DNA of 16,747 nt from Infirmifilum sp. (GTDB lineage Archaea; Thermoproteota; Thermoprotei; Thermofilales; Thermofilaceae): NCBI GenBank assembly GCA_041287245.1, contig JBEULP010000023.1, positions 1 to 16,747 of the forward strand, given 5' to 3'. The notes under the pieces are model-generated. The model saw nothing but the letters and a program-made list of their open reading frames with translations. It did no database searches and had not been told where the DNA came from. Positions within the stretch are counted from its first letter, which is position 1, and the number at the start of each line of letters is the position of its first letter. The position numbers and the translations under genes are program-made. Shown piece by piece: positions 1 through 3,200 of the stretch.

Positions 1-39
1 GTTTTTACCGTTAAAGCGTAAGTTCAAAGGAAATGACCA

Positions 40-288
40 TTGGAAGCAAGGATGAAGAGGAATGCGCGTGCCTTTCTTCAACTGGCTAAATTCTCCTTAA
101 AACAAAGCTACTATGATATGGCGGCGTTCAATGCTGAGCAAGCAGCTTAACTTGCTTACCTGACGAGCAGATATTTTTACAAGTTCTTCGATAAGGAAGA
201 CAGGGAGTATCTTGTTTCACTATCCGAGAAGGTGATAAGATTCTGTGAGAAAATTAGACACAGCATGGGACAGGGCTCGTATTCTTAG
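40..288 (+). pseudogene. HEPN-domain protein pseudogene (HEPN-MNT toxin-antitoxin type), with an in-frame stop and an apparent internal deletion
   Basis: Frame-1 translation from 40: LEARMKRNARAFLQLAKFSLKQSYYDMAAFNAEQAA*LAYLTSRYFYKFFDKEDREYLVSLSEKVIRFCEKIRHSMGQGSYS*. 'YDMAAFNAEQAA(Q)L' and 'AY..SRY' are typical N- and C-terminal motifs of small archaeal HEPN proteins. TAA at 148-150 sits where Q (CAA) is expected, and the central part is missing. It overlaps the downstream MNT gene. Confidence 0.8.
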
Positions 289-592
289 GAATCGCGAAGT
301 GTTGCTGCTTAAGATAAAAGAAGCCGCCCGGGAGACACTGGGTTCAAACCTTATCGGTGTTTACCTGTTTGGAAGTGCAGTCACTGGTGAAATTATAGAC
401 TCCTCGGACGTCGACATTCTGATAGTTGCTAAAGGGCTGCCCCGATCCCTTGTTGAAAGATCTGAGTTAAAGGAGAGAATAATCGAAAAGTCTGGCTTGC
501 CGTTGATCCATCCATTTGAGATCCACCTGGTAGATGAAGATGAGGCTAAGATCTATTTCAGACATATCGGCGAAAAAATCCTTGAACTATAG
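245..592 (+). CDS. Minimal nucleotidyltransferase (MNT) domain protein, partner of HEPN
   Basis: 115 aa with 'VYLFGSAVTGE...SDVDILIV' (GS...DxD Pol-beta NTase motif) and C-terminal 'PFEIHLV'. GTG start overlaps the HEPN 3' end. Confidence 0.9.
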   Translation: MRKLDTAWDRARILRNREVLLLKIKEAARETLGSNLIGVYLFGSAVTGEIIDSSDVDILIVAKGLPRSLVERSELKERIIEKSGLPLIHPFEIHLVDEDEAKIYFRHIGEKILEL

Positions 593-612
593 CATAATAG
601 CCTGGGGAACAA

Positions 613-797
613 CTGACCCCGCCCTAGGGGGGTTCCTCTGTGTGGCTCACTGGTTTGTGGTCTGTCGGCTTCACCCTCACCGCCTTATTGCCAGCGGCTT
701 GAACTCGCCCCGCTCTGCCCGTCCAGCGGCAGGCTGTGCACCTGAGCATTACCCTAGTACCTCAGCGGGGCTCCCAGCTCCACGGAGACTCAGGGGT
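613..797 (-). ncRNA. Putative TnpB omega/reRNA scaffold (orphan)
   Basis: About 185 nt of GC-rich sequence directly 5' of the right-end TCAG, where TnpB omega-RNA scaffolds lie. A TTTTAA TATA-like box at 896-891 (minus) inside the element could drive it. The 5' boundary is uncertain. Confidence 0.5.
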
Positions 798-933
798 GGG
801 CGTCCAGTGCAGGGGACGCATAGAGGCTAGGCGTAGGCCCGCGGGGCGAGTACCCCGCACGACCCACTGGGCGCCCAACGTATTCGCGGCTTAAAATCAG
901 CCCGCCCTGAAAAGCGGGGCCTGCGTTATCTTT
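613..933 (-). mobile_element. Non-autonomous, internally deleted IS200/IS605-family (tnpB-type) element
   Basis: On the minus strand: left-end hairpin CAGG-CCCCGCTTTTCAGGGCGGG (923-901) and right end GAAC-CCCCCTAGGGCGGGG-TCAG (635-613). The GAAC/TCAG pair fits the IS608-type guide/cleavage-site pairing rule. The interior blocks GGGTAATG...CCGCTGGACG...GAGCGGGG...GTGAGGGTGAAG...ACCACAAACC...GGAACC resemble, from recollection, the 3' ends of crenarchaeal tnpB elements. No transposase or TnpB ORF is present. The left boundary is approximate. Confidence 0.7.
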
Positions 934-965
934 GTCGTGAATCCGATGGGAGCCACTGCTCGTCA

Positions 966-3200
966 TTAGACTATGGGCTTTCCCGCTCTCTCTACGGATA
1001 TAGGCTTGAGCTTTAAGGATATGGTCTCGCCAAGCACTCTTGAGGCACGCTTTCGAGATAGTATCTTGTTGTTGTTTCCGCAGTACGGCGAGAATATGCA
1101 TCGTGGGCAGCCGTCTTCGCAGCTGCATTTCGATACTATGTCGTAAGCTTTAGATATAACCTCTTCTAGCCTGGAAAGCAGGGCTTTGGTCACACCCGAC
1201 CCGCCCGGGAAAGCGTCGTATATGTATATGTGGCCCGAGGGGAAGCTGATTCCACCCATGTCTGTCGGAGAAGCCCCGAGAACCAACTGGCCCGCGTAGA
1301 TTAGAGCGTGTTCGACCGCGTGAAAAGCCTCGGCGTTCTGCATCTCGCTCCACTCGGGGTAAGGCGGGAACTCGAGGAGTAAGCCCTTGGTAGAAAACCT
1401 ATAGGTTAACTCTTGCCCTAGAAGCCGCTGGTTTATCACTTGTCCTTCAGGAAAAGACTTTACTACGTACCCGTATACAACGTCGGTAACGGTGAGGTCA
1501 AGGTATGAAGCTTTGACGCCTAGAACCTCACGCTCGGTGTAACGCGTGCCTTCTTCAGGAAGAGTGTAGAAAAGGGGGGTGGTCGTCACAGGGGGCATTT
1601 TGCTGGGTAATAGCTTTACAATAGCCTTCTCGCCTTCAAACCTGACTGTAAGGTAGCTTCTACCGCCGTGCATGTAGATACTCCCCGGGAAGAGCTCTCG
1701 GATTGCCATCTGCTTCTCCCTATACCCTAGCAGCCGGCCAGTTTCCGAGAATATCCTTACCTGGTCGCCCACACCCCTCAGGTTCTCGTGTTCTCTGAGG
1801 AATGTTCTTCCAACCCTTGTAACCTGGATAAAACCTCCGCTTGAGAATTTAAGGTATCCTTGCCTTACAAGCTCCTCAAGCTGGCTCCTCTCCACAGGGT
1901 TTAACTCTTCAACCCTTAAAGGAGCGTCTAGAGCCATAGCCATAAGGTGGATTTTCGTCACCTCATAGTTCCCCGGCTCTAGGAAAACAGGATCAGGCTC
2001 CTGGCTGAAAAAGTCCTCGGGGTTCCTCTCGTAGTAGGCGCTTATAGGGTCGTCGCCGAGTACCAGGAAAACGAAGCCTACTCTGCTGCGCCTCCCCACC
2101 CTTCCCGCCCTCTGGAGATACTTCGAGTACGTCGGGGGTATTCCGTAGAGGATAGCGGAGTCAAGCTCGCCAATGTCTATACCCAGCTCGAGGGTAGGTG
2201 TGGCCACAATAGCGTCCAGTAGCCCACGCTTCAGCTGGCTCTCAACTTTCCTCCGCTCCTCGGGTAGGAGCCCAGCCCTGTGAACCGCCACTCTTAAACC
2301 CATGTTCAAGGCGCGTATTGCTAGTGACTCGGCGACGCGGTGGCTGTCTACGAATAAAATCGACTTTAACCCTTTCTCCGAGAGCTTCTGAAGCAGCCAG
2401 AGAGCCTCCGCTGAGCGGGACCTTGTCTTAGGCGAAAGCATAACGTGGTATATCGCTGCTTTTCTCGTCCTACCTGCGTCTACAACCTCGACAGGTTCGC
2501 CGAAAAGCTTCTCGGAGAACTCTGAGGGGTTTCCTATGGTAGCTGAGGCACCTATCATGACGGGGTTAGCCTTGAGAATCCTTTTTAGCCTTCTAAGAAC
2601 GTAGTGCACGTGGCTCCCGAATACGCCGCTGTAGATGTGAGCGTCGTCCATCACGATGAAACCGGTCTTCGAGAAAATTTCGTGGTAGGTGTGGCTCAGG
2701 TGAAGCGTAAGGTGGAGCATGTCTGGGTTTGTGACAATCACCTTAGGCGGGTAGGCGAGCAAACGCCTCCTCTCCGACTCAGGCGTGTCCCCGTCGAAAA
2801 CACCTAGGCGGAACCCGAAGGCCCGCCCAACATACCAGTCTATCCTTTCAAGCTGGTCGCGTGCGAGTGCCTTGGTAGGGTAGACGAGAAGAGCAAGGCT
2901 GTCCTCTCCTTGAAGTAGTTTTTCGAGTACGGGTAAGAGAAAAGCCTCGGTCTTTCCTACTCCTGTGCCCGCAACTATGAAAACATTCCTCCCCTCCCTT
3001 ATCTTCCCAATGGCCTCCCACTGGAACCGGTATAGCCTGGAAATCCCCCTGGCCCTTAGAGACTCTAGTAGTACAGGGTTTGTGATGACCTCCTCTACCC
3101 GAGGCCCCGGCTCAGGCTCGCGGGCCTCCTCATAATAAGTGTAGACCACGCGGTGACCGTTGTCGTTGCGGATGAGGTCTAAGATATCGCTACCATACAC
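966..3200 (-). CDS. SF2 DEAD/DEAH-box helicase with C-terminal DUF1998 Zn-binding domain (Hrq1/MrfA/SftH-like)
   Basis: 744 aa. Motif I AGTGVGKT, Ia YPTKALARDQ, TNPDMLH, motif II DDAHIYSGVFGS, SAT, ATPTLELGIDIG, QRAGRVGR. C-terminal HAVEH, YDAFPGGSG and CSCEDGCPRC. Confidence 0.92.
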   Translation of the reverse strand: MYGSDILDLIRNDNGHRVVYTYYEEAREPEPGPRVEEVITNPVLLESLRARGISRLYRFQWEAIGKIREGRNVFIVAGTGVGKTEAFLLPVLEKLLQGEDSLALLVYPTKALARDQLERIDWYVGRAFGFRLGVFDGDTPESERRRLLAYPPKVIVTNPDMLHLTLHLSHTYHEIFSKTGFIVMDDAHIYSGVFGSHVHYVLRRLKRILKANPVMIGASATIGNPSEFSEKLFGEPVEVVDAGRTRKAAIYHVMLSPKTRSRSAEALWLLQKLSEKGLKSILFVDSHRVAESLAIRALNMGLRVAVHRAGLLPEERRKVESQLKRGLLDAIVATPTLELGIDIGELDSAILYGIPPTYSKYLQRAGRVGRRSRVGFVFLVLGDDPISAYYERNPEDFFSQEPDPVFLEPGNYEVTKIHLMAMALDAPLRVEELNPVERSQLEELVRQGYLKFSSGGFIQVTRVGRTFLREHENLRGVGDQVRIFSETGRLLGYREKQMAIRELFPGSIYMHGGRSYLTVRFEGEKAIVKLLPSKMPPVTTTPLFYTLPEEGTRYTEREVLGVKASYLDLTVTDVVYGYVVKSFPEGQVINQRLLGQELTYRFSTKGLLLEFPPYPEWSEMQNAEAFHAVEHALIYAGQLVLGASPTDMGGISFPSGHIYIYDAFPGGSGVTKALLSRLEEVISKAYDIVSKCSCEDGCPRCIFSPYCGNNNKILSRKRASRVLGETISLKLKPISVERAGKPIV

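Follow-up and report, generated by a model that had tools for sequence, protein, structure and literature searches.

The element described here occupies positions 613 to 933 of the window (the whole stretch of 16,747 nucleotides that was analysed). It is 321 bp long, lies on the minus strand (running from 933 to 613) and has a G+C content of 65%, against 52% for the contig. It is flanked by two convergent genes, one coding for a nucleotidyltransferase (245-592; PF01909/PF18765) and the other for a DEAD/MrfA-type helicase (966-3200, minus strand; PF00270, PF09369). The stop codon of the helicase is located 32 nt ahead of the element on the same strand, with no T-run in between. Upstream of the nucleotidyltransferase a HEPN frame is present at 34-290 of the plus strand (PF05168 on 37-147); it looks shortened, with a stop at 148-150, and the two are probably a broken HEPN-MNT toxin-antitoxin pair. 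In 21 relatives the helicase does not have this pair next to it, and strain contigs differ at several sites in 153-612. The features of the element and of its borders are:

934-937, minus strand: transposon-adjacent motif (TAM, the insertion tetranucleotide), mutated, CGAC where the family has TGAC
901-933, minus strand: left end of IS605 type, its subterminal hairpin degenerate; CAGG as guide tetranucleotide, against CAAG in the family
891-903, minus strand: remnant of the tnpB promoter; TATA hexamer (896-891) kept, BRE lost
861-890, minus strand: left-end-proximal leftover up to the first internal deletion, common to the second copy of the same genome (C86 copy, see below)
804-860, minus strand: what is left of the tnpB zinc-finger codons; 8 pairs remain possible between the arms 860-853 and 814-807
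801-806, minus strand: site of the second internal deletion, with loss of the RuvC-III codons (about 45 nt); the zinc-finger hairpin is joined to the omega-RNA start
613-801, minus strand: decayed omega-RNA scaffold of a sot0042/HgcC-like family, homologous with parent blocks matching RF02656
613-635, minus strand: right end; GAAC guide, hairpin shorter by 7 nt, 7-nt spacer lost, terminal TCAG
593-612, minus strand: host DNA next to the element, the would-be guide; it is antisense to the sequence flanking the nucleotidyltransferase gene on its 3' side
573-578, minus strand: six-T run, seen directly 35 nt past the right end, possibly an archaeal terminator

The sequence-only reading had taken this locus for an orphan TnpB omega-RNA cassette, i.e. 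an IS605 remnant that lost tnpB but kept promoter, scaffold and guide. Read directly on the minus strand, every part that it named is in its place: the left-end hairpin (923-901), TTTTAA (896-891), the GAAC-hairpin-TCAG right end and the guide (612-593). The letters of the right end are GAAC (635-632), CCCCC (631-627), TA, GGGCGGGG (624-617) and TCAG (616-613), with no spacer. In all, 14 nt are gone from this end; intact right ends elsewhere in the same genome carry a spacer ahead of TCAG. TTTTAA is not rare, with 18 copies within the window. The left-end hairpin region holds a stem of 7 pairs (918-901). Compared with shuffles, neither the whole element (z +0.55) nor its two end hairpins as DNA (z -0.53 at the left, +0.11 at the right) fold better, and the fold of the left end reaches -6.0 kcal/mol, against -9.5 kcal/mol (z -2.38) in the parent element L078. 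This left end was not picked up by a left-end HMM at E<=1. The sequence ahead of the left end is TGAC in most relatives with the left-end guide CAAG, including the C86 copy (C86:44240) and four minimal PATEs (palindrome-associated transposable elements) of the same genome. The element is bordered by CGAC and TTGT, so that no target duplication is seen. An empty site was recovered neither from the 21 helicase loci of relatives, where the gene junction is missing, nor from metagenome contigs or the sequencing runs.

A second full-length copy is found at C86:44240-44580 of the same genome. The two are identical at 198 of 321 positions (62%), with an alignment score reached by none of 500 shuffles; the order of the parts thus exceeds chance. 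The same holds for the 798-900 part considered separately (61 of 103 positions identical, 0/500 shuffles). The abrupt join that had been seen near 797 is real, with a position corrected to about 801-806, and it is not peculiar to this copy because the C86 copy aligns across it. The idea of a join unique to the 613-933 copy was accordingly rejected.

The C86 copy matched 10 of 60 related genomes. Its best matches, over its positions 140-347, correspond to the 3' ends of intact tnpB genes in two of them (G058 and G005), and it also matches the parent protein by tblastn. The protein from G005 (P0001) is a TnpB with PF01385 and PF07282, and a scan of the species genomes with it gave 37 loci. The 3' 105-130 nt of the 613-933 element itself match intact tnpB elements with E-values from 1e-9 to 3e-13, and homology to the 3' end of this archaeal tnpB family extends over its last ~190 nt (whole-element global alignment to the parents scattered the 5' half, and was kept for the 3' block only). 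The parents are 1.25-1.8 kb long, and the first internal deletion removed about 1.1-1.5 kb of tnpB. The segments of the element map to the left end, the zinc-finger codons and the 3' end of the parents. By these homologies it is an internally deleted IS605/IS1341-type element that lost tnpB. The proposed IS605 origin therefore holds, and the tnpB parents and other copies that BLASTN had been expected to reveal exist, in G058/G005 and at C86:44240-44580. The element also has the characters of a PATE: near-terminal palindromes related to IS605-type ends (with weakened hairpins), no terminal inverted repeats, a length of 321 bp that is too short for a transposase, and an origin by internal deletion of an IS605-type element. 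A PATE/MITE-like nature, offered initially as an alternative, is thus supported.

BLAST of the element against 40 relatives gave no match, and the 119 other genomes of the class contain no close copy, six of them giving short distant matches to the family. An HMM of the 613-933 and C86 copies detected shorter 3' fragments on C44, C54, C86, C46 and C6 of the same genome. This genome is strewn with other IS605 remnants, including five minimal PATEs of 43-45 bp in which a left end is fused to a right end, four after TGAC and one after TTAC. In a tree of the 3' blocks (30 rows) the 613-933 copy is the sister of the C86 copy (97/84), next to the G058 elements, and its end branch is the longest (0.55 vs a median of 0.066). 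Its score with the parent HMM (57.8 bits) is the lowest among near-full blocks, against 140 for the C86 copy. A 250-nt contig from a sequencing run of the same community (X1) matches 666-850 with 27 differences (about 85% identity) and no gap, and at four positions inspected by eye (798, 796, 759 and 719) its base is that of the family. On this gap-free match, a subfamily with the same deletions is present in the X1 community, and the 613-933 copy has drifted further. At 792-796 the X1 contig has one extra G while two other runs (X2 and X3) agree with the window, which is either a strain variant or a homopolymer error.

The existence of the sister copy and of the X1 contig indicates that the subfamily once spread, and Y1 TnpA is encoded in one of 23 genomes of the family, which belongs to the same genus. 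Is the element then a parasite that still transposes whenever a TnpA is available? We judge this extremely unlikely. The two copies are only 62% identical and no near-identical copies were seen. The TAM and the left-end guide are altered (CGAC and CAGG for TGAC and CAAG), the right end is 14 nt shorter with its spacing lost, and the assembly has no PF01797 match, i.e. no Y1 TnpA. Moreover, three sequencing runs of one study contain only the filled site, without any excision joint. Strain contigs in these runs differ at 6-8 sites over 153-1541 or 153-2000, none of them in 613-933, which is too few to mean much. The immobilisation suspected from the shortened right end is therefore probable.

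The Rfam families were searched with four sources. Two parents (L078 and L023) and one gene-less miniature (L088) match the sot0042 model (RF02656) over its whole length (1-174 of 174) at 38-44 bits, and HgcC (RF00062) at 35-44 bits; all these matches are below the gathering scores (88 and 50). The C86 copy given to Rfam had no match. The 613-933 copy matches neither family: window 1-2500, which includes it, gave nothing at E<=1, and a search of its own genome with RF02656 missed the locus at E<=0.1. The sot-RNA models proposed for recognising the element thus recognise its parents, below gathering, and not the element. The sot0042 match of the parents starts at the motif homologous to window ~801, and this motif also opens the cloning primer used for the RACE-mapped sot0042 (PMC4615843). 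Because the match begins at this base, the scaffold-like block of the sequence-only reading corresponds, by homology, to the omega-RNA region, with the join as its 5' boundary. The homology of 613-933 to the omega-RNA region of tnpB elements continues through the right end.

To describe the state of this scaffold a family structure of 49 pairs was used. It was set by hand from the Rfam alignment and a parent-only fold, since on the mixed alignment RNAalifold gave a weak consensus that was out of register in places, and it hence derives from the same sequences. Across 28 relatives 92.2% of cells agree with it, and double changes number 22 vs 11.9 in shuffles; slid structures give 36-50% pairing, and the pair-type measure is not above shuffles. 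By hand alignment the 613-933 copy keeps 26 of the 49 pairs and the other 29 rows keep 38-49. Likewise 20-21 of its 185 core columns are deleted, vs 0-5 in the other 29. In this first count helix P2 scored 0/6, a register artefact of the hand alignment, and for that reason the pairs were recounted with gaps placed most favourably for pairing, which raises the number to 31/49. Random mutation at the same divergence, starting from the consensus of parents that are not the direct ancestor, gives 28.5 of 41 alignable pairs; with this reference the p-values for the kept pairs are 0.39 (hand) and 0.23 (favourable gaps). Compensatory double changes number 3-4 (P1a, P3b, P4b), 4 with favourable gaps vs 2.1 expected (p 0.14; 0.21 by hand alignment), an excess over the mean expectation that is not significant. 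Pairing is thus not above the neutral expectation and the scaffold, 3' hairpin included, is not intact. The fold of the omega block tells the same, with z-scores of +0.15 for the 613-933 copy, -3.8 for the parent and -2.3 for the C86 copy. Against a mere relic, helices P1 and P4 are kept, as are the zinc-finger hairpin and the TATA hexamer; P2, P3, P5 and the right end are eroded, and P3a is deleted. Among the 30 family members compared, this scaffold is the most decayed. The C86 copy (L008:541-881) has a better preserved scaffold, with 40/49 pairs and a nearly intact TGAC and right end, and a worse promoter (-5.2 bits).

The initial proposal was that the RNA part persists as a guide working in trans with a TnpB encoded elsewhere. 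In its strongest form, 613-933 would be a functional standalone omega-RNA that loads either a cognate TnpB missing from the assembly or one of two other TnpBs, and that serves either to protect the insertion or to bring the protein to a target. Trans-acting standalone omega-RNAs are described (PMC10691335), a Sulfolobus TnpB was reported to work with a separately expressed guide (PMC11043419), and the boundaries of 613-933 fit an omega-RNA exactly. The same genome encodes two intact-looking tnpB genes plus one broken tnpB, and fragments of a parent-type tnpB occur in that hot-spring community, where the runs cover parts of a parent element that may come from any of its members. We nevertheless consider this reading highly unlikely. 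The two resident TnpBs belong to other clades (E 0.001 and 0.013 with the parent) and have different 3' scaffolds, so their use of 613-933 as cognate RNA was rejected. The parent-type tnpB was not found in the assembly by tblastn, blastn or profile search; this assembly consists of 119 contigs, from which repeated IS copies can drop out. The 3' hairpin is the one feature kept across TnpB omega-RNAs according to PMC10278001, and it is the most damaged part of 613-933, which in addition has lost P3a and has a mutated TAM.

The guide does not point to a target either. In the genome, 13 sites match the first 12 nt of 593-612 with <=1 mismatch, none of them after a GAC motif, and over 20 nt there is one 4-mismatch site besides the guide itself. 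Scanning viruses with 16 nt of the guide gave four loci, none with TGAC directly 5', a number that a rough estimate places at the chance level; one of them has an 18-nt match with TGAC one base off. Pattern scans of metagenomes found neither the guide nor the subfamily motif (0 each), in a collection from which near-identical genomes may be left out, and the 20-nt flank has no exact match in metagenome contigs. The TAM-adjacent target that had been envisaged was thus found neither in the genome nor in viruses. A TnpB-derived regulator as the user of the RNA had also been suggested. Such a TldR-type protein was rejected: both intact resident TnpBs have acidic residues at the three RuvC motifs (by eye), and the guide is ordinary flanking DNA, for which neither a conserved nor a TAM-adjacent target was seen.

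The promoter was scored with a BRE/TATA matrix trained on 638 upstream regions of the same genome, and its scores are predictions (a sigma-70 promoter scan of the window is unsuited to archaea). The four parents tested reach 12.2-12.6 bits (4/4) and five of six other miniatures 10.6-13.7 bits, while 613-933 has -0.4 bits, a value reached by 41% of coding windows. The claim of a kept promoter is therefore half right: the TATA hexamer is homologous to that of the parent promoter, and with the BRE lost the element's own promoter is likely at background level. Read-through from the helicase could still transcribe 613-933, since the helicase, on the same strand, ends 32 nt before it and no T-run intervenes.

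The position between convergent genes, co-oriented with the helicase, raises the question of a use by the host without TnpB, either at the end of the helicase transcript (as a terminator or a structured 3' end) or as an antisense RNA to the HEPN-nucleotidyltransferase pair. A hairpin followed by T4 at 918-893 and the T6 run at 578-573 would suit this role, and PATE-derived RNAs are expressed in Halobacterium with a growth phenotype (PMC4615843). Terminator-like matches are nevertheless at chance (1 vs 0.4 expected) and there is no folding signal. The junction is not conserved, none of the 21 helicase loci of relatives having a nucleotidyltransferase beside it, and the neighbouring HEPN frame has a stop. 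The chance that such a co-option occurred appears slight.

Altogether, 613-933 is very probably a gene-less PATE of an archaeal IS605/IS1341-type tnpB element. It still has its two ends, the promoter region, the zinc-finger hairpin and the omega-RNA block, and it is now likely a relic that no longer moves and decays neutrally, not a guide-RNA gene at work. Its origin from a tnpB element, its two deletions, its omega-RNA boundary and the erosion of its TAM, BRE, helices and right end are demonstrated. The order of events may have been as follows. Two internal deletions in an ancestor common to the C86 copy would have removed most of tnpB and the RuvC-III codons, leaving about 90 nt between the former tnpB promoter and the omega-RNA. 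Following the IS605 retention model (PMC10055086), this ancestor would have been moved to a TGAC site by Y1 TnpA in trans, and would have expressed a standalone omega-RNA loading the cognate TnpB, with the emptied donor site as its only natural target. The loss of the cognate tnpB and tnpA from the lineage would then have relaxed selection, and this would be the cause of the observed erosion of the TAM, the BRE, helices P2, P3 and P5 and the right end.

The long leader hairpin of the sequence-only reading exists, in that its arms can still pair, yet it is not new sequence. Region 860-804 aligns to the zinc-finger codons of parent L022, which read CGETHPNGRIHRGLFKCPRM, with a score that, in this gapped test, 5 of 500 shuffles reach (0/500 for the C86 copy). 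When the arms were tested singly with an ungapped matrix, significance was not reached for 613-933 (p 0.44 and 0.42), nor for many of the miniatures. Folding of this leader hairpin is modestly better than shuffles (z -1.3). In all 13 parents examined, the zinc-finger codons form an inverted repeat of 12-15 bp with compensatory differences, located 40-55 nt before the omega start; in 613-933 the helix has 8 pairs and ends 6 nt before it. No match to the RuvC-III matrix was found in 613-933.

When left ends were matched up with 3' blocks, other genomes yielded 21 distinct gene-less miniatures of 148-432 bp (after dropping a duplicate row, L106), to which four were later added, making 25 in other archaeal genomes and 27 with the two of the source genome. 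None scores >1 with the RuvC-III matrix, vs 38-39 in the parents. Both zinc-finger arms are visible in 12 of the 27; ten of these 12 keep at least 8 pairs, with a helix ending 3-8 nt from the omega start. These 12 were picked by eye and all the miniatures were found through their 3' block, so that the count is partly circular. On the supported branches of the 3'-block tree (30 rows), the type with both arms needs at least four changes. Since miniatures with the same interior carry swapped left ends, recombination could mimic such independent origins, and palindrome correction could mimic compensation. A brief literature search, judged by titles and abstract starts, returned nothing on a hairpin in TnpB zinc-finger codons. 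A tentative proposal, which we hold to be rather improbable, is that the zinc-finger codons double as an RNA hairpin of 12-15 bp, which the repeatedly arisen miniatures keep as they cut the RuvC-III codons, bringing it to within 3-8 nt of the omega-RNA start. Each miniature would then amount to a minimal pre-omega-RNA gene with its own promoter. The hairpin, concealed within the TnpB coding sequence, would be a signal by which the maturing omega-RNA is processed or protected, and 613-933 would be an aged example of this design.

Left-end swapping is seen in one Caldisphaera bin, where L088, L094 and L098 on one side and L089 and L103 on the other have the same interior with different left ends (TTAC/AAAG, or TGAC/TAAC with CAAG). 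This suggests exchange of left ends through the common hairpin, and hence a change of target site. A second class of miniatures (L090, L096, L097, L099, L102, L109, L111, L024, L037, L121 and L128) has a single palindromic zinc-finger arm; judged by eye, this arm makes a local hairpin a short distance ahead of the omega start.

ISC1733 is a member of the IS200/IS605 family. SMN1 of Sulfolobus islandicus (320 bp), which uses the ISC1733 transposase, resembles 613-933 in size and non-autonomy, a likeness of description; unlike 613-933, SMN1 is reported as active (PMC3718332). Also close are the PATEs of Haloquadratum walsbyi, especially HqIRS71 (PMC3119063), from which 613-933 differs by its host (hyperthermophilic, crenarchaeote-type), its tnpB clade and its damaged ends. 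In Pyrococcus abyssi, the intergenic repeats sRk48/sRk52 and sRkB/sRkC are described as relatives of an orphan OrfB (tnpB) 3' end, and they carry a BRE/TATA promoter of their own; the primary sRk transcript is longer, with a 5' stem (P0), and is processed to a shorter RNA, and silent sRkB/C copies lack BRE/TATA (PMC3124441). Expression was shown for the sRk RNAs (PMC3124441), whereas 613-933 has no BRE and is known from sequence; here also the likeness is one of description. In Halobacterium salinarum, PATE-derived VNG_R0052 and sotRNAs are reported (PMC4615843). The omega-RNA PATEs of Geobacillus stearothermophilus (PMC10055086) and the standalone omega-RNAs (PMC10691335) are likewise protein-free, with an omega-RNA needing TnpB in trans; the genomes described there hold a cognate effector, and none was found in the assembly with 613-933. 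Two further papers were also considered (10.1101/2023.03.06.531077 and PMC12558985). The design of 613-933 is thus already covered by PATEs, Pyrococcus tnpB-tail RNAs, sotRNAs, omega-bearing PATEs and standalone omega-RNAs, and as a locus it matters little, being a fossil of a described kind of element. The parent family is of modest use, as it provides thermophilic TnpBs with a putative TGAC TAM and omega-RNA boundaries marked by natural deletions. The repeated retention of the zinc-finger-codon hairpin makes the setting of omega-RNA 5' ends directly testable.

Other IS605-type elements of the same genome have different scaffolds. An intact tnpB-only element at C86:31500-32850 (L001), with a TTAC-type left end and a different, short (~120-nt) 3' scaffold, splits a host reading frame in two, and a gene-less miniature of its type is found at C9:1560-1832. 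At C29:205420-205706 and C69:57124-57400 (L017 and L018), IS605-type right ends border a third type of structured interior, alike by eye in the two. The C69 element (~270 bp) has a TTAC-type left end, and the C29 element gives a weak sot0042 match (E 0.098).
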